Assembly (NCBI GenBank): GCA_963555985.3
Contig: OY820591.1
Span: 1,919,085-1,983,084, forward strand
Length of the DNA stretch: 64,000 nt
Direction of reading: 5' to 3'
Source: Dehalococcoidia bacterium
Lineage (GTDB): Bacteria > Chloroflexota > Dehalococcoidia > Bin125
Positions 6,338 through 60,912 of the stretch are shown one piece after another; the stretch's first letter is position 1; every line of letters starts with the position of its first letter. A program made the translations under genes and the position numbers. The notes below the pieces were generated by a model. The model worked only from the letters and a program-made list of their open reading frames with translations, did no database searches and was not told where the DNA came from.

Positions 6338-6440
6338 ACCCTCTCCCCCCTTGCGGAGCCTGTCCCCGCGTAGGCGGGGAGGGAGATGTCCCGTAGAGCC
6401 TGCCCCCGCGAAGGCGGGGGGACAGAGGGGGGGTCCTCCC
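6338..6440. repeat. Family-A hairpin repeat cluster (reverse orientation)
   Basis: ..ccctctcccccc..cccgcgtaggcgggg..gcccccgcgaaggcggggggacagaggggggtcc. This matches the units at 41296-41375 and 50681-50762. Confidence 0.8.
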
Positions 6441-6540
6441 TCACCCCTCTGTCAACCAAAACACACCCCAACTCCAACACATACGAACACACATACGGTA
6501 AGCTCGACTATCCACCCGCAGAACAAGAGAGCGAGCAAAG

Positions 6541-7452
6541 ATGAGCTTCCCCAACTTCCCCAACCCCGCCCGCCGCGCCAAACTGCTCCAGGCACACCAA
6601 CTCCGCCAACAAGGCCTCACCCTCCGACAGATCGCCCAAGCGATGGGCTGCGCACACTCCACCGTCGCCGCCTACCTCAAGGACTTCGAACTCTTCCGCG
6701 CCGACCTCATCCACGAACTCGCCGCCGACCAACTCGTCTCCCACCTGCTCCAACTCGCCGACCTCGACGACCCCCACCACGACCGCCGCCGCGCCGACAT
6801 CCGCGAACTCCGCCTGCTGCTCACGGCCGTGCCCAAAATCCGCCGCGACGAGTCCGAGCGCACCCAAGAACTCGTCCAGGGCGGCGTCAGCGTCGACCGC
6901 TACGGCCAACGCTACCCCAGGCCCGAACGCTTCTTCCCCCCCACCCCCGAAGAGATCGAGCAGATCAACCAACCCCACGCCAACCCGGAGACCGAGCTCG
7001 ACCCCGACCAACCGCTCGCCCTCGCACCCGAACCCAGTCGAACAGAACCGAACGCCTCCGAACACGCCGAACGCGCCCAAGACACCGACGCACCCGCCCG
7101 AACAGAACCGAACAAGCCCGAACACGCAATCGAGCAATCCCCCGACGACAACGGCGAATCAGAAGAATCCGGCCAGAATTCCCCGCCCCAAGCGCCCTAC
7201 CCCGGCTACATCGACGACCCCCAAGACCCCCTAATCCAGGCCGTCGACGGCCGCGACCCCAGGATCCGCGAATACCTTGAACTCAGCCGCCGCAAACGCC
7301 CCTTCCGCTTCCCCCAGGCCCCCAACCCCCAAGACCGCTGGAGCTGGATCGACCACCCCCAAGACCCCATCGTCGCCGCCGCCCGCGACAGCCTCAGCCT
7401 CCAGCGCATCCTCGAACAGAGCCGCCAATACCGACAACAACTCCCCGCCTAA
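6541..7452 (+). CDS. HTH DNA-binding protein with a long acidic/Pro-rich tail
   Basis: N-terminus QGLTLRQIAQAMGCAHSTVAAYL resembles a sigma-70 region-4 or resolvase-type HTH. The rest is low-complexity. Confidence 0.6.
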   Translation: MSFPNFPNPARRAKLLQAHQLRQQGLTLRQIAQAMGCAHSTVAAYLKDFELFRADLIHELAADQLVSHLLQLADLDDPHHDRRRADIRELRLLLTAVPKIRRDESERTQELVQGGVSVDRYGQRYPRPERFFPPTPEEIEQINQPHANPETELDPDQPLALAPEPSRTEPNASEHAERAQDTDAPARTEPNKPEHAIEQSPDDNGESEESGQNSPPQAPYPGYIDDPQDPLIQAVDGRDPRIREYLELSRRKRPFRFPQAPNPQDRWSWIDHPQDPIVAAARDSLSLQRILEQSRQYRQQLPA

Positions 7453-7463
7453 ATCCCAAAATC

Positions 7464-7690
7464 CGTCATTCCCGCGCAGAGAGGCCTTTGCGAAACCCCC
7501 ATTTCCGTCATTCCAGGCTTGACCTGGAATCTCGTTCCGAGTTCGGTCCATCAGGTCGGGCGAGATTCCAGCTTTCGCTGGAATGACGAGAGCAGCGCGA
7601 ATGCCAATTTGCAAAGGCCTCCGTAGGCGGGGAGGGAGATGTCGCGCAGAGCCTGCCCCCGCGCACGCGGGGGACAGAGGGGGGCGTCGC
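7464..7690. repeat. Mosaic repeat cluster (family B modules followed by a family A module)
   Basis: gtcattcccgcgcag.., gtcattccaggcttgacctggaat.., ttccagctttcgctggaatgac, then ..gcccccgcgcacgcgggggacagagggggg. Confidence 0.8.
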
Positions 7691-7845
7691 ACCCGAGCAG
7701 AGGGAATGAGAACGCCCCAGTCCGATCAGTTCAGTCGCGCCTTACCTCCCTCAAGAGGGAGCAAAGCGCTCTGTAAGCGTGGATCACTCGCCCTGAGCGA
7801 CCGATCCGATCTCTCTATCCTTGTGCCGCGAGAGAAGGAGCCGGC

Positions 7846-8823
7846 ATGAACCGGGCTTGGCGCGTCTTCGTAACCCGAGAACTACCGGGCGACGGCTTCG
7901 CCGCCCTCTGCGAGGACGACGCCTTCGAACTCGATATCTGGCCGGGCGACTTCCCGCCCCCGCGCGAGGCGCTGCTGCAACACGCGGTCGGCATGGACGG
8001 GCTGATTTGCCTGATCACCGATAGAATCGACGCAGCCGTCCTGGACGCAGCAGGTGAGGGCTTGCGGGTGGTCTCGCAAATGGCGGTAGGCGTAGACAAC
8101 GTCGACGTAGCCGCCTGTACAGCCCGCGGCATCCCCGTCGGCAACACCCCGGGCGTGCTCACCGAGACCACGGCCGACATCGCCTGGGCGCTGATGCTGG
8201 CCTCGGCCCGCCGCGTGGTCGAAGCGGCGGAGTACGTCAAGCACGGCGATTGGCGAACCTGGACGCCGACCCAGATGGCGGGCGTCGACGTCTACGGCGC
8301 CACCTTGGGCGTGATCGGTTTCGGCGCGATCGGACAGGCTGTAGCACGACGAGCGCAAGGCTTCGGAATGCGCACGCTCTACTGGAACCGCACCCTGCGC
8401 CCGGCCCAAGCCGAAGCCGTCGGCGCCGACTACCGCAGTTTCGAGGAAGTCTTGGCCGAGTCGGACTTTGTCTCGATCAACATCGCCCTCACCGACGAAA
8501 CTCGCGGTCTCATCGATGCGGACGCACTCGCGCAAATGCGCCCCGGAGCAATCTTGATCAACACTGCCAGAGGCCCCATCGTGGACGAAGACGCCTTAGC
8601 CGAGGCGCTCGCGGCAGGCCAAATCCGCGCCGCCGGCCTTGACGTGACCGCAGTGGAGCCGCTCTCGATGGATTCGCCCTTGCTCAAGATGGACAACGTA
8701 GTCGTCTTGCCCCACATCGGCTCGGCCAGCCTCGCCACCCGCTCGAAAATGGCGGACATGGCGGTCGCCAACCTCCGCGCCGGTCTCGCCGGCGAACCGC
8801 TCCCGCACCAGGCGGGCGTCTAG
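7846..8823 (+). CDS. D-isomer-specific 2-hydroxyacid dehydrogenase (glyoxylate/hydroxypyruvate reductase-like)
   Basis: NAD fold GVIGFGAIGQAVARRA, catalytic region INTARG..VDE and ..LPHIGSAS. Confidence 0.9.
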   Translation: MNRAWRVFVTRELPGDGFAALCEDDAFELDIWPGDFPPPREALLQHAVGMDGLICLITDRIDAAVLDAAGEGLRVVSQMAVGVDNVDVAACTARGIPVGNTPGVLTETTADIAWALMLASARRVVEAAEYVKHGDWRTWTPTQMAGVDVYGATLGVIGFGAIGQAVARRAQGFGMRTLYWNRTLRPAQAEAVGADYRSFEEVLAESDFVSINIALTDETRGLIDADALAQMRPGAILINTARGPIVDEDALAEALAAGQIRAAGLDVTAVEPLSMDSPLLKMDNVVVLPHIGSASLATRSKMADMAVANLRAGLAGEPLPHQAGV

Positions 8824-8832
8824 AGACCCGCA

Positions 8833-22487: not shown

Positions 22488-22505
22488 AGAACCGCTGCTA
22501 CAAAC

Positions 22506-22572
22506 TCTCTCCCCACGCTGCGGAGGGAGACGGCCCGCAGAGACAGAAGGGGTCTGCGAGACCCCCTCTGGG
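22506..22572. repeat. Degenerate family-A repeat / hairpin between convergent genes
   Basis: ctctccccacgctgcggagggagac.. and the hairpin aggggtctgcgagacccct. It may also act as a bidirectional terminator. Confidence 0.5.
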
Positions 22573-26800: not shown

Positions 26801-26871
26801 CCGCGCCGCAGCGCCCAGCGAGAGCGCAACTTCTTTGCCGCCATAAGAGACCGATGCATATCACTCCTGAA

Positions 26872-27100
26872 TTGCCGCATTTCCGCCATTCCGACTCAAT
26901 GAGGCATCCAGTGTCGAGCAGATACGGAGACTGGATTCCCGCGTTCGGAGACATTTGCAAGATTCCCGATCTGAGCGTTTCGTCATTCTTGCGAACGCGA
27001 GAATCTACGTCCCACCCGATACGCCGCATGGATTCCCGCCTGCGCGGGAATGACGGAAATGGGGATTTTGCAAAGGCCTGCGTTCGCGGGAATGACGGTG
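26872..27100. repeat. Family-B mosaic repeat cluster
   Basis: ..cgatacgccgcatggattcccgcctgcgcgggaatgacggaaatggggattttgcaaaggcc.. plus degenerate copies upstream. Confidence 0.8.
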
Positions 27101-27290
27101 GAGGGAGTTATGCATCAAGTCTCCATAAGCGGACATCCGATTGCCTGTGCGAGCCTGTCCGGAGACTGGCAGCGATGGCGAACGCCGGCTCTTGCTCACG
27201 GCGATCTGTTGATGTTTCGTGAACGAATGGTTAACGTCTGGTTAGCGCGAGCCGGTCGGTTGAACGCGGCTCGCAAGAGGGGAGCGGCGC

Positions 27291-30905: not shown

Positions 30906-30970
30906 GGGTTGAGCGTATTGCAGGGGTGGGGTGGTGTTGGTGTTGGCGGGGTTTTGTCTGGGTTCGGGGT

Positions 30971-31030
30971 GGGACCCCCCTCTGTCACTTCGTGACATCT
31001 CCCCCCGCAGTGCGGGGGGAGAGGGGAGAC
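30971..31030. repeat. Family-A short-form repeat
   Basis: gggacccccctctgtcacttcgtgacatctccccccgcagtgcggggggagagggga, nearly identical to 39473-39527. Confidence 0.85.
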
Positions 31031-31102
31031 GCTTTGGGGGCATGTCCGTGCGCGGCGTGGGGGAAGGGGGAGTGGCGACGGGTTGGTTTGTTCGGCATTT
31101 TG

Positions 31103-31969: not shown

Positions 31970-32212
31970 CTCGCTCTCACCCTCTCCTAGTGGAGATCGA
32001 TGCATCATCCCGCGATCGGCTGAGCTCGTCATTTCGGCGTGGGCGGGAGTCCAGATGCCATTCGATACGCCGCATGGATTCCCGCTTTCGCGGGAATGAC
32101 GGGAACGGGAGTTTTGCAAAGGCCTCCCTGCGCGGGTATGACGGATATGGGAGTTTTGCAACGGTCTCCCTACGCGGGGGCAGGCTCTGCGGCAAGCGCG
32201 GGTATGACGAAT
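31970..32212. repeat. Family-B mosaic repeat cluster
   Basis: ..cattcgatacgccgcatggattcccgctttcgcgggaatgacgggaacgggagttttgcaaaggcc..cgcgggtatgacgg.. Confidence 0.8.
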
Positions 32213-33320: not shown

Positions 33321-33489
33321 AGGGGTTCCTTGCGGCGAGTGACGGCGGGGGAGACTTGCCGCCGTGGCGGGGCGGAAGCTCGCCAGAGGTGCGCCGCGTC
33401 CGCCGCCTGCGAGTACTGCAAGGTAGCAGCGGGAGTGTGGGGATAGTGTTCCGCAGTGCACAGGGGTTGGGTGAGGGGTTGGGGGGTTG

Positions 33490-33680
33490 GGGAGTCCCCC
33501 CTCTGTCCCCCGCCTGCGCGGGGGCAGGCGCTGCGGGGCATCTCCCTCCGCAGTGCGGGGGGAGAGGGGAGGTTGGTTGGGGGCGTTTGTGCTGGGGGTG
33601 GCGTTTCACCCCCTCTGCCCCGTTGGGGCATCTCCCCCTTGAGGGGGAGATTCTTGGGGGCGGGGATGACGGAATTGTGG
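33490..33680. repeat. Family-A mosaic repeat cluster (long form plus A3 module)
   Basis: ggagtcccccctctgtcccccgcctgcgcgggggcagg.. followed by gcgtttcaccccctctgccccgttggggcatctcccccttgagggggagattcttggggg. The latter is nearly identical to 39559-39618. Confidence 0.85.
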
Positions 33681-35456: not shown

Positions 35457-35556
35457 GGGTCGGGGTTCCTCTCTTGCTGAATAAAGGACACTTGATCTTA
35501 TATGGATGGGTGCTCGGGTGGGTAATTTGGGGGTGTGTCGTGGTTGACTGAGGGTT

Positions 35557-35784
35557 GGGGAGTCCCCCCCTCTGTCGCTACGCGACATCTCCCCCCGCGG
35601 AGGGGGGGAGAGGGGAGAAGAAGGGAAGGGGTGAGGTGAGGGTTGGGTGCTGGTCACGGCGAGATACCCGCGACGGAGCGCGGGTATGACGGAGCTTGTT
35701 TGGGGCGGGGATGACGGAGGTGGGGATTTCGCAACGGTCTCCGCAGGCGGGAGTCCGGATGCCATTCGAGACGCCGCATGGATT
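35557..35784. repeat. Mosaic repeat cluster (A then B), truncated on the right by the IS30 insertion
   Basis: ggagtccccccctctgtcgctacgcgacatctccccccgcgg.., ..gagatacccgcgacggagcgcgggtatgacgg.., and ..gagacgccgcatggatt ending at 35784. Confidence 0.8.
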
Positions 35785-36825
35785 TCCTAGTCTCACAGAC
35801 GAAGTGCGACAGATGATTGAGGTGAGCCCATGGGCGCGCAGTACACGCAGTTGGACCTGGCGGAGCGATGCGCGGTTGCCCGCTTACAGGCCGAGGGGCG
35901 CTCGATCCGGCAGATCGCTGCAGCTCTGGATCGCTCGCCATCGACGATTGCTCGAGAGCTGAAACGCAACACGGCGCGCGACGGCTACCGTCCCGACTAC
36001 GCCCAGCAACAGGCCCAGGCGCGGCGCTGGCGCGGTTCGCGGCTGGAACGCGACGATCAGCTGCGCGCGCGGGTGCTGCGCGAGTTGGCCCGCGGGCTCT
36101 CGCCGCAACAGGTCGCAGGCCGGCTGGCGCGCGAGGCGGGCGCGCCGGTGATCTCGCACGAGAGCATCTACCGCTTCATCTACGCCCAAGCCTCGCGGGC
36201 CAAGCCCGGCCGCGGCGGCGGTTGGCGCCAGTATCTGCCGCGGCGCAAGGCGAAACGCGGTTGGCGCGGGCGCAAAGGCGGCAGTTCGGTCGAGCGCATC
36301 CAACTGCGGCGGCCCCTGAGCGAGCGCCCGGCGGCGGCCGCCGGGCGGCTCGAAGCCGGTCACTGGGAGGCCGACCTGATGCTCTTCGGGCGCGGCGGTC
36401 CGCTCCTGCTGATGCTGCACGAGCGCTCCTCGCGGCTGCTCGTGGGCTTGCCCGTGGCGGGCAAGGCGGCCGCTCCGGTCGCGCGCCTGCTGCTCAGCCT
36501 GCTCCGCGCCTGGCCGCCCGCCCTGCGGCGCACGGTCGCGTTCGACAACGGGACCGAGTTCGCCCGCCACTACGAACTGCACCGGCTGGGCGTGGAGACC
36601 TTCTTCTGCGACCCCTACGCGCCCTGGCAGAAGGGCGGGATCGAGAATGCGATCGGACGCCTGCGCCGGGTCCTGCCGCGCCGGCTCGACCTCGCCCAAC
36701 TCAGCCTCGCGCGTTTGATCGAAGTGCTGCAGTTGTACAACAACACCCCCCGCCAGTGCCTCGACTACCTCTCCCCGGCCGAAGTCTTCGGTCGGCAGTT
36801 GTTGCAGTTGCAATGTGAACCCACC
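35785..36825 (+). mobile_element. IS30-family insertion sequence (~1.04 kb; boundaries inferred from the interrupted repeat)
   Basis: The flanks ..ccgcatggatt | IS | ttcccgcctgcgcgggaatgacgg rebuild an intact family-B module (compare 27023-27056) with a putative 2-bp TT duplication. Terminal inverted repeats are only weakly recognisable by eye. Confidence 0.6.
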
Positions 36826-36846
36826 TTCCCGCCTGCGCGGGAATGA
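35830..36846 (+). CDS. IS30-family transposase
   Basis: N-terminal HTH ..GRSIRQIAAALDRSPSTIARELKRN.. and a DDE core ..GHWEADLM.. The last 7 codons and the stop lie in the flanking repeat. Confidence 0.88.
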   Translation: MGAQYTQLDLAERCAVARLQAEGRSIRQIAAALDRSPSTIARELKRNTARDGYRPDYAQQQAQARRWRGSRLERDDQLRARVLRELARGLSPQQVAGRLAREAGAPVISHESIYRFIYAQASRAKPGRGGGWRQYLPRRKAKRGWRGRKGGSSVERIQLRRPLSERPAAAAGRLEAGHWEADLMLFGRGGPLLLMLHERSSRLLVGLPVAGKAAAPVARLLLSLLRAWPPALRRTVAFDNGTEFARHYELHRLGVETFFCDPYAPWQKGGIENAIGRLRRVLPRRLDLAQLSLARLIEVLQLYNNTPRQCLDYLSPAEVFGRQLLQLQCEPTFPPARE

Positions 36847-36885
36847 CGGAATTGGGGATTTACGCGCGGGTCTCCTCAAGGGGGA
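36826..36885. repeat. Right-hand remainder of the IS-interrupted family-B module
   Basis: ttcccgcctgcgcgggaatgacggaattggggatttacgcgcgggtctcctcaaggggg. Confidence 0.75.
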
Positions 36886-37013
36886 TGGGGGAGGCGATAG
36901 GATGGGTGGTACTGGGACTGGCCAGGTATTGGGCTTTGCCGATGTGCAGTGGGCGGACGACATCGACTCGCGTTCGAGCGGTTTTTCCTGATCCGCCACG
37001 ACGGCCGGGGGAT

Positions 37014-37760: not shown

Positions 37761-39464
37761 TTGAAGTTGAGCGCTGCACTGAGGACGGTCTCGGAGATTT
37801 CTCACTGGTACGTAGATGCGATCGCGGCAGAGCATCCGAATCTGGCGACCTCGCTGGGGATTGCGGGGGGAGAGACGGAGTTGACGGACTACTCGCCAGA
37901 CGGTCAGGCGGCGCGGACGGCGGTTCGCAAGCGGGCCGAGGCGGCGCTGGCGGAGGCGCCGATTGAGAGTGAGCGGGATCGGGTGGCGCGGGATGTGATG
38001 TTGGAGCGGTTTGAGTATGAGGCAGAGTTGGAGTCGCAGCAGGAGCATCTGCGCTCGCTGAACATTTTGGCGTCGCCGTTGCAGAACACTCGCTCGGTGT
38101 TTGATTTGATGCCGAAGGGGTCGGAGGAGGACCAGGCGAAGATCGTCGAGCGGATGGGCGCGGTGCCGGAGGCGCTGGAACGCTATCGGGCGTCGCTGGC
38201 GGCGGGGCTGGATGAAGGGATCGTGGTGGCGCAGCGGCAGGTTCGGGGTGCGGTTGAGCAGTGCCGGGTGTGGGCGGGGCAGGGAACCCCCCTTCAGCCT
38301 TCGGCAGGAGCCAAGTCGTTCTTCCGGCAGCTTTGCGATGACCTGGGGATTGATGGCGGCGAGAACGTCACCGCGGCCGAGCGGGGCTATGCGGCGATGG
38401 GGGATTGGTTGGAGACTGAGTACCTGCCCAAGGCGAATCCTCGCGATCCGGTGGGGCGGGAGCGGTATGCGGCGGCGTCTCGGGGGTTCAATGGGATCGA
38501 GCTTGATTTGGAGGAGACGTATGCGTGGGGCTGGGAAGAGTTGTGGCGGATTCAGGAGGAGATGCGGGAGACAGCGGAGCGGATTTCGGCGGGGGCGTCG
38601 GTAGCGGAGGCGATTGCGATTCTGGAAGCGGACGCAGAACGCACGATTGAGGGGGAAGACGCCTTTCGGGAGTGGATGCAGGAGACGCAGGATCGGACGA
38701 TGGGGGAGTTGCAGGGGCGGCATTTTGAGATCGCGGAGCCGGTGCAGCGGATCGAGGCGATGATTGCGCCTCCGGGCGGGGCGCTGGCGATGTATTACAC
38801 GGGTCCGACGGAGGATTTTTCGCGTCCGGGGCGGACGTGGTATCCGACCGGGGGGGCGACGCGGTTTCCGCTCTGGCGGGAGTTGTCGGTGTGTTATCAC
38901 GAGGGGGTGCCGGGGCATCACTTGCAGATTGGGACGACGCGCTGGCTGGGGGAGCGGCTGACGCGGTATCAGCGGCTGTTGGCGGGGACGTCGGGGTATG
39001 TGGAGGGTTGGGCGCTGTACGCGGAGCGTTTGATGGCGGAGTTGGGGTATCTGGAGGATCCGGCGTACTACATGGGGTTGTTGTCGAGTCAGGCGTTGCG
39101 GGCGGCGCGGGTGGTGGTGGATATCGGGATGCACCTGGAGTTGACGATTCCGGAGCGGGAGCCGGCGTTTGGGGGCGCGGATTACGGAGGCGAAGTGTGG
39201 CGGGGGGAGATTGCGCTGCCGTTCTTGTTGGAGCGGTCGTTCTTTCCTGCGCAGATGTTGGCGAGTGAGGTGGATCGGTATCTGGGCTGGCCGGGGCAGG
39301 CGATTAGCTACAAGGTGGGGGAGCGGGAGTGGTTGGCGGCGCGGGAGTCGGCGCGGTCGGCGCTGGGGAGCGAGTTTGATTTGAAGCGGTTTCATGCGGA
39401 GGCGTTGGAGTTGGGTCCGATGGGGTTGGGGCAGTTGCGGTCGGAGATGTCGGGGTTGGAGTGA
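37761..39464 (+). CDS. DUF885-family protein (metallopeptidase-like)
   Basis: ..CYHEGVPGHHLQ.. motif and a DUF885-like length of 567 aa. The track places the start at TTG. Confidence 0.8.
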   Translation: MKLSAALRTVSEISHWYVDAIAAEHPNLATSLGIAGGETELTDYSPDGQAARTAVRKRAEAALAEAPIESERDRVARDVMLERFEYEAELESQQEHLRSLNILASPLQNTRSVFDLMPKGSEEDQAKIVERMGAVPEALERYRASLAAGLDEGIVVAQRQVRGAVEQCRVWAGQGTPLQPSAGAKSFFRQLCDDLGIDGGENVTAAERGYAAMGDWLETEYLPKANPRDPVGRERYAAASRGFNGIELDLEETYAWGWEELWRIQEEMRETAERISAGASVAEAIAILEADAERTIEGEDAFREWMQETQDRTMGELQGRHFEIAEPVQRIEAMIAPPGGALAMYYTGPTEDFSRPGRTWYPTGGATRFPLWRELSVCYHEGVPGHHLQIGTTRWLGERLTRYQRLLAGTSGYVEGWALYAERLMAELGYLEDPAYYMGLLSSQALRAARVVVDIGMHLELTIPEREPAFGGADYGGEVWRGEIALPFLLERSFFPAQMLASEVDRYLGWPGQAISYKVGEREWLAARESARSALGSEFDLKRFHAEALELGPMGLGQLRSEMSGLE

Positions 39465-39470
39465 GTGGTT

Positions 39471-39625
39471 GGGGGACCCCCCTCTGTCACTTCGTGACAT
39501 CTCCCCCCGCAGTGCGGGGGGAGAGGCTCCGGGTTTAGGGGGTTGGGTGCTGGATGTGGCGTTTCACCCCCTCTGCCCCGTTGGGGCATCTCCCCCTTGA
39601 GGGGGAGATTCTTGGGGGGGCGGGG
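39471..39625. repeat. Family-A mosaic repeat cluster (short form plus A3 module)
   Basis: gggggacccccctctgtcacttcgtgacatctccccccgcagtgcggggggagagg.. followed by gcgtttcaccccctctgccccgttggggcatctcccccttgagggggagattcttggggg. Confidence 0.85.
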
Positions 39626-39666
39626 TAGTATTGAGGGACTGGGCGGTTGCCGGGGATGGAGTTGGT

Positions 39667-41295: not shown

Positions 41296-41493
41296 GGGGA
41301 CCCCCCTCTGTCCCCCCGCCTTCGCGGGGGCAGGCTCTACGGGACATCTCCCCCCGCAAGGGGGGAGAGGGGAGCTGGGGTTTGGGGTTGGTAGTGCTCA
41401 CGGCGAGATACCCGCGGCAAGCGCGGGTATGACGGAGCTGTGGGCGCGGGAATGACGGAATGTGGGATTACGCGCAGGTCTCCTTGAGGGGGA
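41296..41493. repeat. Mosaic repeat cluster (A long form plus B2 plus B modules)
   Basis: ggggacccccctctgtccccccgccttcgcgggggcaggctctacgggacatctccccccgcaaggggggagagggga.. and ggcgagatacccgcggcaagcgcgggtatgacggag.. Confidence 0.85.
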
Positions 41494-41498
41494 GCGGG

Positions 41499-44872: not shown

Positions 44873-45046
44873 CGGGGGTTTGCCGGACCCCCGCTGTCGC
44901 TTCGTGACATCTCCCCCTCAAGGAGACTTGTGCATAAGTCGATTTTCTCCCGTCATTGCCGCGGCGGAGCGCGGCAATCTCGCTGTGCGCACGACGATGG
45001 TGCAGATAAGGGCGTCATACCCGCGGCAAGCGCGGGTATGACGAGG
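44873..45046. repeat. Mosaic repeat cluster (A short form plus B2-type hairpins)
   Basis: ..ggacccccgctgtcgcttcgtgacatctccccc.., gtcattgccgcggcggagcgcggcaat.., gtcatacccgcggcaagcgcgggtatgac. Confidence 0.8.
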
Positions 45047-45090
45047 CTTGTTGGAGAGGGGATGAGAGGGTTGCGGTTGTTGCGGGGGTC

Positions 45091-46329: not shown

Positions 46330-46371
46330 GGGGGCTCCGGCGGTTAAACGGCTGCGGTCTTGAGGGTGTCT

Positions 46372-46513
46372 GGGGACCCCCCTCTGTCCCTACGGGACCT
46401 CTCCCCCCGCGATGCGGGGGGAAAGGGGACCTGATTTCGGGACGACTCCCTCTGCGATGCGGGGGGAGAGGGGGCTGATTTCGGGACGGTTCTCTCCGCG
46501 CTGGGGGGAGATG
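46372..46513. repeat. Family-A repeat cluster (2-3 tandem sub-units)
   Basis: ggggacccccctctgtccctacgggacctctccccccgcgatgcggggggaaaggggacctgatttcgggac.. repeated. Confidence 0.8.
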
Positions 46514-50610: not shown

Positions 50611-50680
50611 TCGGCCTCTTGGCTCTGAGCGGCTCTGGGAAGGGGGCGAGGGAGCTCAGCGGGGCCGGCTGGGGGCAGCT

Positions 50681-50893
50681 GGGGACCCCTCTCTGTCCCC
50701 CCGCCTTCGCGGGGGCAGGCTCTACGGGACATCTCCCCCCGCAGTGCGGGGGGAGAGGGGGACTTGCTTCGGGACATCTGCGCTTGCGGTGTAGGGGGAG
50801 AGGGGGACTTGCTTCGGGACATCTGCGCCTGCGGTGTAGGGGGAGAGGGGGACTTGCTTCGGGACGGCTCGCTTGTGGTGTGGGGGAGTTGAG
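50681..50893. repeat. Family-A long form followed by ~3.7 tandem copies of a 45-bp unit
   Basis: Units at 50726-50770, 50771-50815 and 50816-50860, with a partial copy to 50893: gggacatctgcgcYtgcggtgtagggggagagggggacttgcttc. Confidence 0.85.
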
Positions 50894-53694: not shown

Positions 53695-53957
53695 CGGGGC
53701 CCCTCCGTTACTTCGTGAGATGTGGTGTAGCAGATAGCACGGCGGCGTTCTCACCCCCTCTGCCTTCGGCATCTCCCTCCCCGCCTGCGCGGGGACAGGC
53801 TCTCAAGGGGGAGATCGATTTTGGTCTACGTGCAGGTCTTCCAAAAGGGGAGGTTTTGGGAGTTAGCCGACGGCACCGTCGGTGGCGCGCCGGTCGTGTT
53901 CGCGACGACGGTACAGGTCATGGCGAGATACCCGCGGCAAGCGCGGGTATGACGGAG
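53695..53957. repeat. Mosaic repeat cluster (degenerate A modules plus a B2 module)
   Basis: ..ttctcaccccctctgccttcggcatctccctccccgcctgcgcggggacaggctctcaaggggg.. and ggcgagatacccgcggcaagcgcgggtatgacggag. Confidence 0.75.
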
Positions 53958-53987
53958 TATTGGGTGCGAGGAGGGGAGGTTTGGGGG

Positions 53988-56474
53988 TTAGCCGAGGGTT
54001 CCGGCGGCGGCTAGGCGGGTGATGTCGGTGTCGGTGTAGTGGAGGAGGTGTCGGAGGATGTGTTCGGTGTGTTCTCCCCAGAGGGGGGCGCGCTCGGTTT
54101 TGAGGCGCTGGTTGTCCCAGAGGATGGGTTCGTGCTGGATGTGGAGGCTGGGGCCTTCGGGGGATTGGGCGTGGTGATAGTTGGCGCGCATGGCGTGGTC
54201 TTGCTCGAAGAAGTCGCGCAGGCGCTCGACGGGGCTGGCGGGGAGGCCGGCGTTGAGCAGGAGTTGGGCGGCGCTCCACTCATCGTGTTGGCTCGACCAG
54301 CTAGAGATCGCGGCTTCGATTTCGTCTTCGGCGGCTTGGCGGCCGGAAAGCGTGGCGAAGTCGTCTCGCGCGGCAAGGTCGGCTCGTCCGATCACACGGC
54401 AGAGGGATCGCCATTCGTTGTCGCTGCGGCAGGCGAGCGCCAGCCAGCGATCCTCGCCGGCCGCGGGGAAGACTCCGTGCGGAGACATCCAGGGAGAGCG
54501 GTTGCCGATGCGGGGGCGTTCGGGGATGCCGTTGAGAGCTTCGAGCAGTTCGGTGTCGAGGAGGTGGGTGGCGGTTTCGTATTGCGCAACCTCGACGTAG
54601 CTGCCCTCGCCGCTGCGCTCTCGTTGCTCCAGGGCTGCCAGGACGGCGGCGGCGAGATAGTAGGGGACGGTGAAGTCGGTGTGGAGGGTACCGAGGCAGA
54701 TGGGGGGTTGGTGTCCGAAGCCGGAGCGGTAGGCGAGGCCGCTCATGCCGACGATGCCGTTGCCGTAGGAGCGCCACTCGGCGCGGGGGCCTTCGATGCC
54801 CATGACGGCGACGTTGCAAAGGATGATGGCGGGGTTGATTTGGGAGAGCACGTCGTAGCCCACGCCCCAGCGGTCGAGGACGTAGGGGGTGTAGTTGGAG
54901 GTGACGACGTCGGCGGTTTCCGCCAGCCGGAGGATCGCTTCGATTCCCTCCTCCGTCTTGAGATTGAGGGTGCAGGAGAGTTTGTTGGCGCTGCAATCGT
55001 TGAAGACGCCGTTGGTGTTGAGGGAGAAGCGATCGGGCGGTTGGACACCGATATAGCGGATGGGGTCGAGGCGTCCCTCGGATTCGATTTTGATGACTTC
55101 GGCCCCGAGGTCGGCAAGGAGGCGGGTACCGAGTGGTCCGGCGATAGCCCAGCAGAAGTCGAGGATGCGGACGCCGGCGAGGGGTTGGCGTGGGGGTGGT
55201 TGGGGGACCCCCCTCTGCCGCTTCGCGGCATCTCCCCCCGCACTGCGGGGGGAGAGGGGAGCGTGCTTCGGGGCATCTTCGTCTGTAGTGCGGGGAGAGA
55301 GGGGAGCGGGCTTCGGGGCGTCTGTTGCTGTCGGGAGGGAGGTGAGGATTTCGTGGGTGTGTTCTCCGAGCATGGGGGCTCGTTTGGCTTGGGGTTGTTG
55401 GCCTCGTTGGCGGATGGGTGGGCGGGGGAAGGTGAGGGCCTGGTTGAGTTGAGGATGGTGGACTTCTTGGTAGAAGCCTCGGGCGCGGAGGTGGGGATCG
55501 TTGGCGACTTCTTCGACGGTGTGGATGGGGAGGACGAGCAGGCTGCGGCGCTGGCCTTCGCTGGTGAGTTGTTCGAGGGTGAGGGTCTCGCAGAGGCGGA
55601 CGACCCAGGGGCGGATTTCTTGGTTGAAGTTGAGGTTGCGATAGCCCTCGTCGTCGAAGCGCGCTTCGTGGAGGACTGCGGCGTCTTCGAAGACGCGGTC
55701 GCACCAGTCGACGAACTTGTACCAGTGGGGCGGGTGGATGGTGAAGGTGAGCCAGTGTCCGTCGGCGCTTTGGAAGGTGGCGCCGCTGCCGATGGGGGTG
55801 TGGCGGTCGGGGGAGTGGTTGTGCCAGGGGTGATAGTTGCCGTTGGCGGTCTGGAGGGTGGTGAAGGCGACGGCTTCCTGCATCCCGACCGTGACCCAGC
55901 CGGGGTCTCCGCCGCGGCGGCGTTGGGTGATCATGGCGAGGGCGGCTTCGGCGGCGACGAGTGAGATTTGCTTGTAGGCGAGGTTGCCGGCGGGCCAGAG
56001 GGGCGGGTCTTCGGGGAAGCCATTGAGGACGATGTGTCCGCCGGCCGCCATCGCGGTCAGGTCAGTCACTGGTTCAGGTTCGCGTTCGTTGCGTCGGAAG
56101 ACGCAATCGACAACTGGGATTTGGTGTGTCCAGAGGCCGTCGCGTCCGCGTTGGAGCCAGTCGGCGAGCGCCGGCGCGGGCTGCAAGGGCGCGAGCAGGG
56201 CGTCGCAGCGGGGGAGCATGGTTTCGACGGTTTGCCAGGTGTCGGGGTCGTCGAGATCGACGGCGAGGGAGCGTTTGCCGGCGTTGTAGAGGAGGTGCGC
56301 CCAGCCGCGTTCGAGGCGGTCGGCGTCTGTGTCGAGGGCGGGTTCGCGTCGGCGGAGTTGGTCTCCGCGCTGATCTTCGATGCGGATGACGTCTGCGCCG
56401 AGGTCGGCGAGCAGGCGCGCGCCGAGGGCGAGCGGCTCGTCGGTGAGGTCGAGGATGCGGATGTGATTGAGCAT
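53988..56474 (-). CDS. Fusion of two family-III (CaiB/BaiF) CoA-transferase modules joined by a repeat-derived linker
   Basis: Module 1 starts MLNHIRILDLTDEPLALGARLLADLGADVIRIE. Module 2 starts ..PLAGVRILDFCWAIAGPLGTRLLADLGAEVIKIE. No stop codon and no ATG/GTG/TTG lies between them. The linker is ..DAPKPAPLSPRTTDEDAPKHAPLSPRSAGGDAAKRQRGVPQPPPRQ.. Confidence 0.85.
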   Translation of the reverse strand: MLNHIRILDLTDEPLALGARLLADLGADVIRIEDQRGDQLRRREPALDTDADRLERGWAHLLYNAGKRSLAVDLDDPDTWQTVETMLPRCDALLAPLQPAPALADWLQRGRDGLWTHQIPVVDCVFRRNEREPEPVTDLTAMAAGGHIVLNGFPEDPPLWPAGNLAYKQISLVAAEAALAMITQRRRGGDPGWVTVGMQEAVAFTTLQTANGNYHPWHNHSPDRHTPIGSGATFQSADGHWLTFTIHPPHWYKFVDWCDRVFEDAAVLHEARFDDEGYRNLNFNQEIRPWVVRLCETLTLEQLTSEGQRRSLLVLPIHTVEEVANDPHLRARGFYQEVHHPQLNQALTFPRPPIRQRGQQPQAKRAPMLGEHTHEILTSLPTATDAPKPAPLSPRTTDEDAPKHAPLSPRSAGGDAAKRQRGVPQPPPRQPLAGVRILDFCWAIAGPLGTRLLADLGAEVIKIESEGRLDPIRYIGVQPPDRFSLNTNGVFNDCSANKLSCTLNLKTEEGIEAILRLAETADVVTSNYTPYVLDRWGVGYDVLSQINPAIILCNVAVMGIEGPRAEWRSYGNGIVGMSGLAYRSGFGHQPPICLGTLHTDFTVPYYLAAAVLAALEQRERSGEGSYVEVAQYETATHLLDTELLEALNGIPERPRIGNRSPWMSPHGVFPAAGEDRWLALACRSDNEWRSLCRVIGRADLAARDDFATLSGRQAAEDEIEAAISSWSSQHDEWSAAQLLLNAGLPASPVERLRDFFEQDHAMRANYHHAQSPEGPSLHIQHEPILWDNQRLKTERAPLWGEHTEHILRHLLHYTDTDITRLAAAGTLG
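55202..55322. repeat. Family-A tandem repeat embedded in-frame in the CoA-transferase CDS
   Basis: gggggacccccctctgccgcttcgcggcatctccccccgcactgcggggggagaggggagcgtgcttcggggcatcttcgtctgtagtgcggggagagaggggagcgggcttcgggg. Same unit type as 50726-50893. Confidence 0.8.
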
Positions 56475-56536
56475 TGGGGGAGGATAGCGGTGGGTGTTGC
56501 GGGGGCTGGTTGGGTTTGGAGTGGATTGTGGCGTGC

Positions 56537-56610
56537 GGGACCCCCTCTGTCCCCCCGCCTTCGCGGGGGCAGTCGCTGGGGGACATCTGCTCTTGTGGTG
56601 TGGGGAGAGT
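56537..56610. repeat. Family-A repeat
   Basis: gggaccccctctgtccccccgccttcgcgggggcagtcgctgggggacatctgctcttgtggtgtggggagag. Confidence 0.8.
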
Positions 56611-58929: not shown

Positions 58930-59172
58930 ATGACCGAACAGCGAGCAACGGCCGACCAGCCGCCTCCCGCGTGCGCGCGCGGGGCGGCTGGCGGTCCCGC
59001 CAACTGCGAGTGCGCCTCGACCGGCGCGCTCTGGCAGTATCTGCGCCGGATTGAAGGCGGACTCGACCAGATCGAGTCCCGGATCGACCGGCTCTACGTC
59101 GCGATCGGGGGCGGGACTGTGTTGTTGGCGGCGATCAGTTTCGGAGCGGCGTTTATCGCTCGCGGGGGCTGA
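58930..59172 (+). CDS. Small coiled-coil protein with a C-terminal TM anchor (XhlA-like architecture)
   Basis: ..YLRRIEGGLDQIESRIDRLYVAIGGGTVLLAAISFGAAFIA. Confidence 0.5.
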   Translation: MTEQRATADQPPPACARGAAGGPANCECASTGALWQYLRRIEGGLDQIESRIDRLYVAIGGGTVLLAAISFGAAFIARGG

Positions 59173-59204
59173 GGGGGTGAGACGTGACGTGGCAGACGGG
59201 ACCG

Positions 59205-59412
59205 CGGCGTTTTCACCCCCTCTGCCCCCCCGCCTTCGCGGGGGCAGGCTCTTTGGGGCATCTCCCCCTCGAGAGACTTTCGCAACACTCCCCGAACTCC
59301 ACGCTTCGTCATTCCTGTGAACGCAGGAATCCAGGCGCCACTCGATACGCCGCATGGATTCCCGCCTGCGCGGGAATGACGGATATGGGGGTTTGCGACG
59401 GTCTCTCGAGGG
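59205..59412. repeat. Mosaic repeat cluster (A plus B) splitting the lysis cassette
   Basis: ..ttttcaccccctctgcccccccgccttcgcgggggcaggctc.., gtcattcctgtgaacgcaggaat.., cgatacgccgcatggattcccgcctgcgcgggaatgacggatatggggg. Confidence 0.85.
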
Positions 59413-59470
59413 GCAGATTGATCGGGAGTTGAGCATCGGATGTTCCGGTGCAACGGATTGGAGGCTTCGG

Positions 59471-59704
59471 ATGGCGGAGATAGTGAATTCGGGGCGCGGG
59501 GAGCGGCCGCTTTGGCTTCCTCGCGGGAGTGTTCGGGCGCTGATTGCGTTGGGTGTGATTGGCGTTTGGGCGGTTTTGGAGACGGGCGTGTTTGGGCCTG
59601 GGGAGGCCTCGGACGCGGTGCGCTCGATGGCGGTCGCGGTGGCGGCGGGCTACGGGGTGCTGCGCGAACGTGATCGTCGGTTGCAGGAAGGGAGCGGAGT
59701 ATGA
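59471..59704 (+). CDS. Putative holin (77 aa, two TM segments)
   Basis: Internal ATG at 59471. TM segments ALIALGVIGVWAVLETGVF and AVRSMAVAVAAGYGVL. The stop overlaps the amidase start (ATGA). Confidence 0.5.
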   Translation: MAEIVNSGRGERPLWLPRGSVRALIALGVIGVWAVLETGVFGPGEASDAVRSMAVAVAAGYGVLRERDRRLQEGSGV

Positions 59705-60417
59705 GCAGCACCAGCACGAGGGTCCGGCCGGCGCCGGATTTGAGCGGGATTCGGGGTTTGCCGGAGGGTGCGGCGACGATCTGGGCGCCTGCCCATCCGA
59801 GCAATTTCTACGCCGCTGGCTCGCCGGACCCGAAGCGGGGCGGCAGCGCTCCCTACCGGGGCGCGCCGCGCCGTATGGTAGCCATCTGCTACCACACGCC
59901 GGAGGAACCCTGGGACGACCGCGAGACGACGCCGGAGTGGTTCGCCAATCCCCAGGCGAACGCCTCCACGGGCTACTACGCGGACAGCGACGGCGACCTG
60001 TACCAAATGGTGCGGGACGCCGATTTCGCCTGGGCGCAGGGAGTGCGGACAGCGCAGCTGGTGCTGCCGCGGCCGCTCTGGTGGCGTGACGAATACGTCT
60101 CCTACAACACCTGCATGGCCTCAATCGAGATCGAGGGCTACGCGGATCGGATCGGGGAGACGTTCACGGTCGGCAGCCGCCAATTCGCCTCGGTGGTGGC
60201 CTGGTCGGCCTATATCTGCCGGAAGTACGGGATTCCGCCGGAGCGGGCGTATCACCTCGGCCACTCGGAGTTGACGCAGCGCAAGCACGACCCGGGCCCG
60301 GCCTTTCCCTGGGAACCGTTGCTGGCGGCGGTGGCGGCGCAGCTGGCGCTGGCGGAGCGGCCGCTGGAGGCGCGCGTGTTGGAGTTGGAGCGGCGCGTGT
60401 CTGTACTGGAGCGGTGA
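59701..60417 (+). CDS. N-acetylmuramoyl-L-alanine amidase (Amidase_2/PGRP-type endolysin) with a C-terminal coiled coil
   Basis: ..ICYHTPEE.., ..YNTCMASIEIEG.. and ..HLGHSELTQRKHDPGPAFPW.., the zinc-amidase motifs. Confidence 0.85.
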   Translation: MSSTSTRVRPAPDLSGIRGLPEGAATIWAPAHPSNFYAAGSPDPKRGGSAPYRGAPRRMVAICYHTPEEPWDDRETTPEWFANPQANASTGYYADSDGDLYQMVRDADFAWAQGVRTAQLVLPRPLWWRDEYVSYNTCMASIEIEGYADRIGETFTVGSRQFASVVAWSAYICRKYGIPPERAYHLGHSELTQRKHDPGPAFPWEPLLAAVAAQLALAERPLEARVLELERRVSVLER

Positions 60418-60444
60418 TGCACTGAGGCGAGATGATCGGCTAAT

Positions 60445-60852
60445 GTGTCTTCGACAGATTTTCGGCTCGTCGGACACTACGGGAAGAAGGGCGTCCAGGT
60501 CATGGAGGACGATTCCGGAACGTATCTACGAGGCGGCGAAGACGCGCTCGCTGATCGGGTGCAGTTGTGCTGGTCGCCGACGGCGCAACTGGCGCGCGAA
60601 TGGGGCGAAGAGGCTCGCTGGGAGCTGTTCGAGCAGTTGCTGACCTTGCAGGTGGAGCGGAGCGCGAATCGGGGCGCGCCGCTTGCGCCTGGGCGGTATT
60701 ACGCGGAGGTGTTTGACGACGCTGCGGAGGGCGCGCATGGGTTCCTGATTGAGATTCGGGCTGATCGATGTCGCGTAATCGAACGGGTTTGGCAAGAGAA
60801 GCCGCGGCGGGAGTTGCTGGCTTCGGTGGCGTTGGGGTTGGGTCGGTTGTAG
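60445..60852 (+). CDS. Hypothetical protein (135 aa)
   Basis: ORF track. Balanced amino-acid composition. No motif. Confidence 0.45.
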   Translation: MSSTDFRLVGHYGKKGVQVMEDDSGTYLRGGEDALADRVQLCWSPTAQLAREWGEEARWELFEQLLTLQVERSANRGAPLAPGRYYAEVFDDAAEGAHGFLIEIRADRCRVIERVWQEKPRRELLASVALGLGRL

Positions 60853-60861
60853 GGGCGGACT

Positions 60862-60912
60862 GGGGGAGGGATCCCCCTCTGTCCCCCCGCGATGCGGGGG
60901 GAGACAGGGAGC
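60862..60912. repeat. Family-A repeat (single unit)
   Basis: gggggagggatccccctctgtccccccgcgatgcggggggagacaggg. Confidence 0.7.

Follow-up and report, generated by a model that had tools for sequence, protein, structure and literature searches.

Two repeat families of known kinds, each bracketing its own nuclease gene, in the intergenic mosaic of a Dehalococcoidia genome

Introduction

Among the closest described systems are the REP/BIME elements with their RAYTs and the REPINs, which were reportedly described by Nunvar in 2010, Bertels and Rainey in 2011 and Ton-Hoang in 2012. REPs that carry a CGTC tag have no dedicated transposase according to the literature. Ssn GIY-YIG nucleases bind the hairpin of the Ssn-related motif (SRM) and cut beside it, on a single strand only and in ssDNA only (Di Nocera et al. 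2013, PMC3733652; Chenal et al. 2025, PMC11893778). The intrastrand triplex motifs BoxC, PIT and TMECO were reported by Hoyne & Maher (2000, 2002), as cited in Holder et al. 2015 (PMC4666352). CD and NMR have shown that TMECO, whose architecture is the one described below for family A, adopts a triplex fold in vitro.

Here we analyse the window, a 64,000-nt stretch of a Dehalococcoidia genome in which an earlier note had seen a mosaic of two hairpin-repeat families, A and B, of REP/BIME or MITE type and with ongoing mobility or recombination, a reading that our results partly support.

Results

Using iterated nhmmer profiles, we found ~500 clusters (499) covering 1.3% of the 3.3-Mb genome, and the repeats are common to three genera of one Dehalococcoidia family. 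The modules are therefore not confined to the window, and intergenic hairpin repeats of the REP/BIME class, as proposed, occur both genome-wide and family-wide. Family A was found in none of the 376 other genomes of the class that were searched. Families A and B lie in the intergenic gaps of this sponge-type Dehalococcoidia genome.

In the window, the profiles identified 20 clusters (2240 bp), and a BLAST-based count (genome-wide matches with at least 5 copies) gave ~19-20 short clusters spanning 6339 to 60914 and totalling ~3.07 kb, or 4.8% of the window, in good agreement with the earlier estimate of at least 20 clusters, ~3 kb and ~5%. All five modules quoted earlier are present at or near the positions given for them, with 0 matches in 100 shuffles of the window. 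The mosaic had been called exceptionally dense, which holds in relative terms only: with 20 clusters where the genome averages 9.6 per 64 kb (sd 4.4), the window has about twice the mean density, ranks in the top 1.4% of sliding windows and forms the densest region of the genome. The housekeeping stretch said to be nearly free of repeats indeed has no profile-detected cluster between 7684 and 22505, and the repeats do create false ORF extensions, as exemplified by the ORF at 35100-35765, which runs through a cluster.

The family A strand consists, in order, of a pyrimidine arm, a loop, a purine arm, a 16-nt mini-hairpin linker and a mirror-image purine arm. In a Watson-Crick fold, the 10-nt arm that is conserved best remains unpaired; this arm is the mirror image of the pyrimidine strand of the hairpin. 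By its sequence, family A belongs with the BoxC/PIT/TMECO intrastrand triplex motifs, of which it is a lineage-specific variant, and its strand could fold as a hairpin with a third strand in the groove (purine motif, class II). The three strands covary. At triple position 1, (T,T,A) is found in 146/163 elements (with an anchor independent of the third arm), and where the pair is changed the third arm follows in 12 of 13 cases, as (C,C,G) or (A,G,C); the three allowed combinations are obeyed by 146 of the 150 copies listed, from 20 genomes, a covariation that goes back to about three subfamily founder events and not to many independent changes. The second position covaries too, from (C,C,G) to (T,T,A), and run lengths are equal across the three arms, as (6,6,6) (n=43) and (5,5,5) (n=34). 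On the bottom strand, the triplets A.A-T, G.G-C and T.C-G correspond to purine-motif geometry. T.C-G would be the tolerated triplet at a C-G inversion, for which published work says only that no natural base binds stably. In at least one copy (C1:2112090) the Watson-Crick pair is kept and the third arm is not adjusted.

Within the window, family A copies lie on the minus strand at the left end, where a long element at 6339..6447 has a G/C hairpin, 'module I', nested in both loops and a weak copy at 22505..22552 is the last before the GC-skew flip at 23.3 kb. All of the following are on the plus strand. Short elements are found with a G-run flank at 30933..31049 (element 30973-31025), with one additional 45-bp tandem unit at 46361..46474 and with tandem units at 55183..55347, a cluster that sits within a long open frame joining two CoA-transferase modules. 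A long element at 50681-50760, with 1 mismatch to the module quoted earlier, is followed by three decaying 45-bp tandem units (50680..50893). The cluster at 33465..33690 combines a G-run flank, a long element (33496-33575) and an A3 element (33601-33660), and that at 39448..39626 a short element (39475-39527) and an A3 element (39559-39618); where near identity had been noted, the two A3 copies are identical (60/60), and the copies at 30971 and 39473 agree completely across the 52-nt element. Further copies are an A3-type element whose loop 1 contains a nested module I (53715..53817), a degenerate long element (56530..56609) and a truncated one (60868..60914).

Both DUF559 genes of this genome, at C1:2139046 and C1:1607874, are bracketed by family A copies. 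In relatives, 12 DUF559 loci were retrieved, and every one has a TM- or A-type motif no more than a few tens of bases away on at least one side, most of them on both. Copies of the classical TMECO pattern, 12 of which occur in this genome, are likewise found beside DUF559 genes in relatives. The DUF559 proteins, which have a Vsr-like nuclease fold, are the likely partner of family A and may act on it.

Family B is a CGTC-tagged REP, alias the SRM of Neisseria dRS3/NTS. Read on the opposite strand, B1 (CGTCATTCCCGCGCAGGCGGGAATCCAT) matches the NTS consensus (CGTCATTCCCGCGMAVGCGGGAATCYRG) at 27 of 28 positions, and the family fits the CGTC-1 description in its tag, 8-9 bp stem, 4-5 nt loop and head-to-head dimers. 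The genome contains two Ssn-like single-domain GIY-YIG ORFs of 96 aa each, which are 64% identical and each of which has its own stem variant: ssn1 (C1:84724-85014) has TTCCAGC-type SRMs on both sides, and the SRMs around ssn2 (C1:2090340-2090630) are of the TACCCGCG/TGCCGCG type. A third abundant variant has the exact NTS stem TTCCCGC. From these sequences, Ssn is predicted to cleave at its own SRMs in this genome.

Family B clusters in the window lie at 26847..27132, where an exact NTS-type hairpin CGTCATTCCCGCGCAGGCGGGAAT (27032-27055, minus-strand reading) is joined to linker modules, and at 31995..32209, with SRM hairpins (32078-32101 and others) and TTTGCAAAGGCC-type linkers; a B2 SRM with a G-run flank (53922-53957) makes up the plus-strand cluster 53895..53986. 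The B1 module was found at 27017, 32063 and 59343, and the B2 module at 53922-53957 and 41402-41437. Other clusters mix the two families. That at 7447..7686 pairs inverted TTCCAGC-type SRM hairpins (7508-7590), the same variant that flanks ssn1, with a long family A element (7634-7684, minus); that at 41296..41498 (plus) contains a long family A element (41296-41375), a B2 SRM (41402-41437) and a B1-like SRM; that at 44882..45065 has degenerate family A beside an inverted, REPIN-like SRM doublet (44951-44978, 45013-45043); and that at 59171..59419 joins an A3-type long element (59211-59279) to an inverted SRM pair (59307-59330, 59358-59381). On the plus strand at 35549..35787, a short family A element (35563-35615) and a B2 SRM (35664-35691) precede the left half of a B1 SRM, whose right half, with a linker, lies at 36830..36893 (plus). 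The two halves are separated by an IS30-family insertion sequence within the B1 hairpin (35788..36829, plus), which uses the repeat as a target and is not part of it. Indeed, 9 of the 10 genomic copies of this element sit at the same SRM position, between GATTCC and CGC, and its ends do not resemble the repeats.

The co-occurrence of repeats and nucleases is specific across 47 genomes. Family A has a median of 63 copies in genomes with DUF559 and 8 in those without (p = 8.5e-5), SRMs have a median of 106 in Ssn-positive and 5.5 in Ssn-negative genomes (p = 3e-4), and the cross-tests are weak (p = 0.04 and 0.20), all of these p-values being overstated because related genomes are not independent. 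Exceptions are G005 and G027, with many A copies and no DUF559, G006 and genus g10, with DUF559 and no A core, and G026 and G046, with more than 100 SRMs and no Ssn. The earlier note had missed the small nuclease gene that each family brackets elsewhere in the genome, the identity of family B with the known NTS/SRM target of Ssn nucleases and the mirror symmetry of family A, a triple-helix signature.

Modules had been described in both orientations. Both do occur, but family A runs one way before ~23 kb and is reversed after it, in step with the GC-skew flip at 23.3 kb. With repeats masked in the skew calculation, orientation agrees with regional GC skew for 84/85 family A and 71/77 family B copies at an absolute skew of at least 0.1, and where skew and gene direction conflict in this set, the skew is followed by 10/10 and 9/10 copies, respectively. 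The chi-square values for skew and gene direction are 111 vs 23 for family A and 79 vs 5.6 for family B. Orientation thus follows regional GC skew and not gene direction, which points to a DNA-level, replication-linked biology of the repeats. Skew turns from minus to plus exactly upstream of dnaA; the polarity argument draws on this one flip among 76, and the C-rich strand carries 54.6% of genes, which speaks against it.

Discussion

We consider it probable that the mosaic consists of two unrelated ssDNA-folding repeat families, each paired with its own repeat-bracketed stand-alone nuclease gene, an arrangement reminiscent of an insertion sequence. The nucleases would promote repeat spread or keep it in check while the DNA is single-stranded, and the mosaic may have arisen because fresh copies gather where intergenic DNA tolerates them and insert into one another's loops. 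The strand that would be dangerous when single-stranded, Ssn-cuttable in B and triplex-forming in A, would be kept off the lagging-strand template. Neither GIY-YIG Ssn nor DUF559 proteins are known to mobilise anything or to join DNA.

That the repeats are mainly RNA elements, terminators or mRNA-stabilising 3'-end hairpins with an orientation set by transcription, seems unlikely. Convergent gaps contain clusters 1.7x as often as tandem ones (24.7% vs 14.6%), one orientation relative to the genes accounts for ~80% of family A copies in co-directional gaps, gene direction is informative beyond skew for this family (the chi-square of 23) and hairpin stability is very high (z = -5 to -6). However, regional skew is by far the better predictor, with 19 of the 20 conflicting copies siding with it; promoter-side divergent gaps are not depleted (16.6%), no U-tract was seen after the hairpins when the cluster sequences were read by eye, Rfam gave no matches, and RNA forms no purine-motif triplexes and is not acted on by Ssn. 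It is also doubtful, if slightly less so, that the clusters serve above all as hotspots of recombination or instability, giving rise to gene-module boundaries and marking them (by inversion or by insertion of phage fragments and paralogs), as suggested for Neisseria dRS3 and E. coli TMECO, both of which the literature ties to variability. Two co-assembled strains that are 97-98% identical differ by 11 indels of at least 10 bp, of which 5 are inside clusters (1.3% of the sequence), and modules are swapped at one locus, so the ongoing change proposed earlier is real in the form of module gain, loss and swap within clusters. Moreover, multi-copy families are over-represented among cluster-adjacent genes (odds ratio 1.6, p = 1e-5), and the accessory patch of the window is the densest region genome-wide. 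Yet the indels alter the repeats themselves and not the flanking genes, the 76 GC-skew flips show no cluster excess over other gene junctions (13% vs 13%; 33% vs 37% within one gene) and 20 breakpoints of kb-scale strain replacements are no closer to clusters than random positions (2/20 within 100 bp, 4.5% expected). What stands of the earlier claim that repeats sit at rearrangement boundaries and paralog junctions is the modest enrichment beside multi-copy genes; boundary marking is not supported.

A classical REP/BIME or REPIN system moved by RAYT (IS200/IS605-like Y1), or MITEs moved in trans by a DDE transposase, is highly improbable, even though linker modules and short, high-copy, GC-rich palindromes together make up intergenic mosaics, inverted doublets (44951-45043, for example) are REPIN-like and the IS30-family element is physically tied to family B. 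The Y1 transposase domain PF01797 was not found in this 96%-complete genome by a search that was positive in 6 control genomes, and 63 of the 65 genomes of the family likewise have no RAYT/IS200-type Y1 transposase, which argues against the mobiliser suggested earlier. The tag is CGTC, not GTAG, and belongs to REPs without a dedicated transposase. Family A has no terminal inverted repeats and, because it has no target-site duplication, is not a classical MITE, contrary to the earlier suggestion; the IS30-family element targets the hairpin.

We thus retain the reading of two repeat families with their own nucleases. Since A and B belong to known classes, each bracketing its own nuclease gene, what is new is the host, and the selfish repeats themselves are of known kinds and do not constitute a new system. 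By description they can be likened to the small non-coding repeats (SNRs) that Makarova et al. 2007 (PMC1978522) described in Deinococcus radiodurans, also a mosaic of small intergenic modules found in one lineage and missing from close relatives, although here in another organism. With REP/BIME elements, RAYTs and REPINs they share small hairpin repeats in mosaics, an expected action on ssDNA and a single-copy 'host' gene bracketed by inverted repeat copies, but the folds are GIY-YIG and DUF559 instead of HUH Y1 transposases and there is no GTAG tag. Family A has, like BoxC/PIT/TMECO, a 9-nt C-rich arm, a complementary G-rich arm and a mirror G-rich arm on one strand, the class II purine motif, a similar word content (CTCTCCC / GGGAGAG) and an intergenic, multi-copy distribution that varies in number among relatives. 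It differs in its loop 2, which is 16 nt with its own 5-bp mini hairpin where that of TMECO is 3 nt, in the nesting of bigger hairpins (module I) in either loop, in its C5-C6 runs, in its limitation to three genera and in its three-strand covariation, which is not reported in Holder et al. 2015 (PMC4666352). Family B shares with CGTC-1/dRS3/NTS and Ssn its hairpin make-up (tag, stem, loop and tail), a copy number in the hundreds, an arrangement in clusters and head-to-head dimers, ~96-aa single-domain GIY-YIG genes with the motif on both sides, the lack of a RAYT and a symbiont host. In contrast, the host here is a member of the Chloroflexota (Dehalococcoidia) of a sponge-associated type, two predicted Ssn paralogs have separate stem variants beside a third NTS-stem variant, orientation is tightly locked to GC skew and an IS30-family element is specialised on the hairpin.

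Two hairpin-repeat families in the window and genome-wide

All of the hairpin modules quoted in the earlier note are found at or next to the positions from which they were described, whereas 100 shuffles of the window that preserve its dinucleotides yield no match to any of them. A direct-repeat scan of the window recovers interlocking copies that fall into at least 60 repeat families. When the window is compared by BLAST with its own genome, ~19-20 short segments stand out between 6339 and 60914, each with 5 to 140 further genomic copies, and the repeats amount to ~3.07 kb or 4.8% of the window, in line with the hand estimate of roughly 3 kb and 5%. The stretch from 7.7 to 22.5 kb contains zero clusters; the earlier note had described the modules as nearly absent there. 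Far from being confined to the window, the modules recur across the 3.33-Mb, 65% GC assembly, in which the window spans C1:1919085-1983084. A k-mer repeat map (k = 13) is too noisy at this GC content, and iterated nhmmer profiles were used instead; these give 115-277 matches per module genome-wide and, after merging, 499 clusters that together occupy 42 kb (1.26%) of the genome. The mosaic had been called exceptionally dense, and this holds in degree but not in kind: the window is the densest region, with 20 clusters where 64 kb of this genome has 9.6 on average (sd 4.4), which ranks it in the top 1.4% of sliding windows.

Gene calls are GC3-based and were made within this analysis; scanned for known RNAs, the window shows neither a match to an Rfam family nor a tRNA. 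The DinB and Uma2 paralogs present here are suggestive of Deinococcus, but its mosaic small non-coding repeats (SNRs) were rejected as an identity for the modules, the relatives being Dehalococcoidia/Chloroflexota MAGs. The repeat-free stretch and its surroundings include two genes for DNA methylases (N6_N4_Mtase) and one for an HNH endonuclease (11201-12193, 12307-12777 and 25838-26752). At 53988-56474 (-) an 828-aa open frame joins two CoA-transferase family III domains across the cluster at 55183-55347; it may be either a true fusion or a pair of genes linked only because the repeat between them lacks stop codons. Across the genome, 26 clusters are found well inside long ORFs.

Family B and the Ssn-like genes

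Family B, a CGTC-tagged REP, combines a CGTC(AT) tag with an 8-9 bp stem whose first pairs are A/T, a loop of 4-5 nt and a short tail. Read on the opposite strand, its B1 module is CGTCATTCCCGCGCAGGCGGGAATCCAT, which agrees at 27 of 28 positions with the 'Neisseria transformation sequence' (NTS), CGTCATTCCCGCGMAVGCGGGAATCYRG, an agreement seen at both 27017-27056 and 59343-59382. A pattern of the CGTCATTCCCGCGMAVGCGGGAATCYRG type has 314 matches in the host's own genome and its reversed control pattern has 0. The published partner of this hairpin, also termed the Ssn-related motif (SRM), is Ssn, a 94-aa single-domain GIY-YIG nuclease (CDD cd10448) that binds the SRM hairpin and cuts a few bases upstream, acts on ssDNA only and on the NTS strand only, and is encoded by a gene that is typically bracketed by SRM (PMC11893778).

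Two 96-aa ORFs on the main contig, C1 (ssn1, C1:84724-85014, and ssn2, C1:2090340-2090630), match PF01541 at 60 and 56 bits, share 64% identity and resemble the UPF0213 structures 1zg2 and 1ywl. SRM hairpins are found no more than 150 bp from both genes, on each side, with a separate stem variant for each gene. The flanks of ssn1 are TTCCAGC/GCTGGAA, a stem variant also present in the window at 7508-7590, and those of ssn2 are TACCCGCG and TGCCGCG, the B2 module of the earlier note and its inverted partner. Among the 47 genomes of g1-g3, the three repeat-carrying genera of the host's GTDB family, the median SRM count is 106 with an Ssn homolog and 5.5 without (p = 3e-4, with relatives that are not independent).

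An IS30-family element of 1042 bp occupies window 35788-36829 and nine other sites on C1, its 10 copies being 99.9-100% identical. Nine of the 10 sit at one exact position within the SRM hairpin (GATTCC-IS-CGCCTGCGCGGGAATGACGG), and this shared position marks the element as specialised on family B.

Architecture of family A

The short element of family A has sharp ends and unique flanks and is laid out as GA-CCCCCCTCT-G-[GTCAC TTC GTGAC]-CA-TCTCCCCCC-GC-AGT-GC-GGGGGGAGA-GG; its 52-nt bottom strand is CCTCTCCCCCCGCACTGCGGGGGGAGATGTCACGAAGTGACAGAGGGGGGTC. A Watson-Crick fold pairs a mini hairpin and a long hairpin (z = -6) and leaves free a 10-nt 5' arm that is better conserved than any other part of the element. 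This arm mirrors the pyrimidine strand of the hairpin and is not its complement. When the mini hairpin and the Watson-Crick stem are the sole anchors of a search and the 5' arm is left out, the mirror arm agrees at 8 of 9 positions of the 9-nt arms in more than 150 of 163 elements. The bases at matched positions of the three arms are (T,T,A) in 146 of the 163, and the arm changes together with a changed base pair in 12 of 13 cases. Subfamilies in relatives shift three positions jointly (TCT-G...CA-TCT...AGA; TCC-G...CA-CCT...AGG; TCA-G...CA-GCT...AGC), and 146 of the 150 copies listed from 20 genomes have (T,T), (A,G) or (C,C) at two positions that are both free in the pattern. A second co-varying triple, C.C.G to T.T.A, is found in CCCCCTTCA...GCTTCCCCC...GGGGGAAGC copies of several genomes, the three-strand covariation as a whole representing few subfamily founders. 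Run lengths are equal in all three arms, at (6,6,6) in 43 copies and (5,5,5) in 34.

This mirror covariation is explained by a base triple and by no antiparallel Watson-Crick scheme. Among the Watson-Crick alternatives, antiparallel pairing of the 5' arm with the purine arm and pairing of the arm with the flanks were both rejected, as was use of the arm as an extension of the mini hairpin, which works for the T variant only. Along the bottom strand a pyrimidine arm is followed by a purine arm and then a mirror purine arm, the architecture of a class II purine-motif intrastrand triplex, and the three combinations read there as A.A-T, G.G-C and T.C-G. A.A-T and G.G-C are the canonical antiparallel triplets, and T is reportedly the best natural choice opposite a C-G inversion, a result attributed to Beal & Dervan in 1992. 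A pyrimidine-motif triplex of the top strand is less likely, as it needs six adjacent protonated cytosines and, for subfamily 2, a non-canonical A.C-G. From comparative covariation at two positions, which supports triplex folding, we infer that family A is probably a variant of the triplex-type repeat.

The known repeat of this type, BoxC/PIT/TMECO, has the motif CCCTCNCCC-N3-6-GGGNGAGGG-N3-GGGNGAGGG, with loops of 3-6 nt and 3 nt in TMECO and of 1-6 nt in the ITxF search; TMECO forms a stable triplex by CD and NMR, is abundant in many bacteria and is tied to local instability (PMC4666352). Compact, short-loop copies of family A number only 3, two of them beside a DUF559 gene. Loop 2, loop 1 (53749-53815) or the two together (6339-6447) can harbour larger nested hairpins (the long-form insert, CCCCGCCTKCGCGGGGRCAGGCTC), and such loop-only insertions are what a structural constraint predicts for family A. 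Runs of G3-6 spaced by T or TT (GGGGTT-like) flank family A on the same strand at window 30925-30975, 33463-33493, 41370-41392 and 55180-55206 and are capable of G-quadruplex formation; genome-wide, family A flanks are ~50% G across 14 nt on each side.

DUF559 as a candidate partner of family A

The genome contains two intact DUF559 genes. One (C1:2139046-2139354) has an A3-type copy on one side and an inverted subfamily-3 copy on the other, and the second (C1:1607874-1608191) sits within an array of A3 copies and compact copies with TMECO-like 3-nt loops (CTCTCCCCCC-GCA-GGGGGGAGA-TAC-AGAGGGGGG). In each of the 12 DUF559 loci examined in relatives, at least one flank carries a triplex motif no more than a few tens of bases from the gene; most loci carry it on either flank, usually as inverted copies whose mirror arms point inward. 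The motifs are in part the literal TMECO consensus (CCCTCTCCC-TCT-GGGAGAGGG-TTA-GGGTGAGG) and in part A-type with the mini hairpin. The median family A count is 63 with a stand-alone DUF559 gene and 8 without (p = 8.5e-5; 47 genomes, whose relatives are not independent). The cross-associations, of A with Ssn and of B with DUF559, are weak, and the nuclease-repeat association has exceptions both ways.

Orientation and GC skew

Approximately 80% of the copies in co-directional gene pairs have one orientation relative to the genes, a bias that is largely a by-product of a stronger rule set by GC skew. C1 is divided into ~77 skew domains with a median of ~30 kb and gene-level skew to +/-0.3, far from the usual two-replichore pattern, and one flip falls in the window at 23276-23331. 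The sign of a domain does not depend on gene direction: at 28-56 kb of the window, plus- and minus-strand genes alike have a plus-strand skew of +0.15 to +0.37. With repeats masked and an absolute skew of at least 0.1, orientation agrees with the skew of the region for 84/85 (A) and 71/77 (B) clusters, and where skew and gene direction conflict, skew is obeyed in 10/10 (A) and 9/10 (B). In a logistic model the added chi-square is 111 (A) and 79 (B) for skew, and 23 (A) and 5.6 (B) for gene direction.

For family B it is the NTS strand, and for family A the predicted triplex-forming bottom strand, that lies on the regionally C-rich strand. A minus-to-plus flip is positioned exactly at the upstream end of dnaA (C1, ~66.0 kb), with a chance of ~3% among 76 flips, and this one flip suggests that the G-rich strand is, as usual, the leading strand. 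The lagging-strand template would then present NTS as its uncuttable complement and A in its pyrimidine form, which is weak and pH-dependent. Selection may keep the reactive strand off the single-stranded template, which is the weakest step of the argument; 54.6% of genes are on the C-rich strand, and this counts against the polarity argument. A far-reaching, and on balance doubtful, extension is that family A folds as a purine-motif triplex in vivo when single-stranded and that DUF559 recognises the fold, so that the genome would have two independent nuclease-repeat systems, both hiding the reactive strand from the lagging-strand template.

Distribution among relatives

The host genus is a GTDB singleton within a family of 65 species genomes and 10 genera. 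A and B repeats are found in genera g1-g3 and almost never in the remaining seven, and outside the family no family A repeat was found in 376 other genomes of the class. An exact-pattern scan for B2 across 185,579 species genomes returned mostly 'Dehalococcoidia bacterium' and Chloroflexota MAGs, the carriers including sponge bins, closed chromosomes of 3.1-3.6 Mb and a few Rhodopseudomonas records. The exact pattern (ATACCCGCG-N5-CGCGGGTATGACGG) is also present in three alphaproteobacterial genomes (L023, L044 and L048; Rhodopseudomonas faecalis and R. palustris). These copies fit the published alphaproteobacterial home of CGTC REPs and hint at transfer or convergence across phyla.

Strain variation and module boundaries

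The ten small contigs C2-C11 (11-55 kb) represent a second strain as haplotigs, with an identity to parts of C1 put at 97-98% or, more widely, 95-99%, and explain the 7.5% 'contamination' figure of the assembly. Over the 173 kb aligned between the two strains, 11 indels reach 10 bp or more, and five of them fall in or beside clusters; these involve, among others, units of 41 and 25 bp that were gained or lost. One locus has an NTS-type hairpin and an A element in one strain and two B2-type hairpins in the other. Since strain indels concentrate in or beside them, the clusters turn over quickly.

The proposal that the repeats mark most module boundaries is not borne out. Twenty kilobase-scale replacement breakpoints are no nearer to clusters than random positions, the 76 GC-skew flips show no cluster enrichment, and multi-copy genes are only modestly enriched next to clusters (odds ratio 1.6). 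The apparent boundary marking therefore reflects a preference for the many short intergenic gaps of the accessory patch, with no role in boundary creation shown.

Relation to known repeat systems

The earlier note had likened the repeats to REP/BIME- or MITE-type elements and had suggested a RAYT/IS200-like mobiliser. Such a mobiliser finds no support, as PF01797 (Y1 HUH) is without a match in the host's own genome; the same search, positive in six control genomes, gave 2 weak partial matches among the 65 genomes of the family. Neither family has a GTAG-type REP tag, the tag of family B being of the CGTC type and family A being without one. A MITE-type origin fares no better: target-site duplication in family A is not above the shuffled expectation, and the sole repeat-associated insertion sequence differs from the MITE arrangement in that it enters the hairpin and its ends are not shared with it. 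A 25-copy small gene was set aside as a repeat partner, having no family match. It encodes ~117 aa, lies at window 35100-35453 (-) and ~24 other loci with paralogs of 72-90% DNA identity, several of them adjoining repeat clusters, and is upstream of a terminase-large-subunit-like gene (33692-35113); the 2.1-kb terminase unit has 4-5 occurrences at 87-96% identity.

On the best reading of the mosaic, two selfish repeat systems that operate at the DNA level have piled up and nested where intergenic DNA tolerates them. In abundant sponge symbionts such repeats account for 1-2% of the genome; they give rise to spurious ORF extensions and gene fusions in annotations, and small differences between strains concentrate in them. 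If the triplex reading is true, the three-strand covariation would be comparative evidence that selection acts on an intrastrand DNA triple helix of a natural repeat family, evidence of a kind that is not reported in the triplex-motif study PMC4666352. If both pairings are true, one genome would hold two parallel repeat-nuclease pairs, with different nuclease folds and the same architecture and strand polarity, arguing for a general class of element alongside REP-RAYT in which a stand-alone nuclease is matched with an ssDNA-folding repeat.

The repeats are no new kind of system, and a link to large rearrangements is unsupported. Each family belongs to a known class, as a member or as a variant, and has a plausible nuclease partner. 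Family B fits the CGTC-1 family (= dRS3) of CGTC-tagged REPs, which 'apparently lack a dedicated transposase' (PMC3733652). Family A has the same three-block order on one strand as BoxC/PIT/TMECO but differs in its loop 2, which at ~16 nt and with a mini hairpin exceeds the short loops of that class; were the DUF559-triplex reading true, these 25-year-old BoxC/PIT repeats would gain a protein partner and a replication-linked logic.
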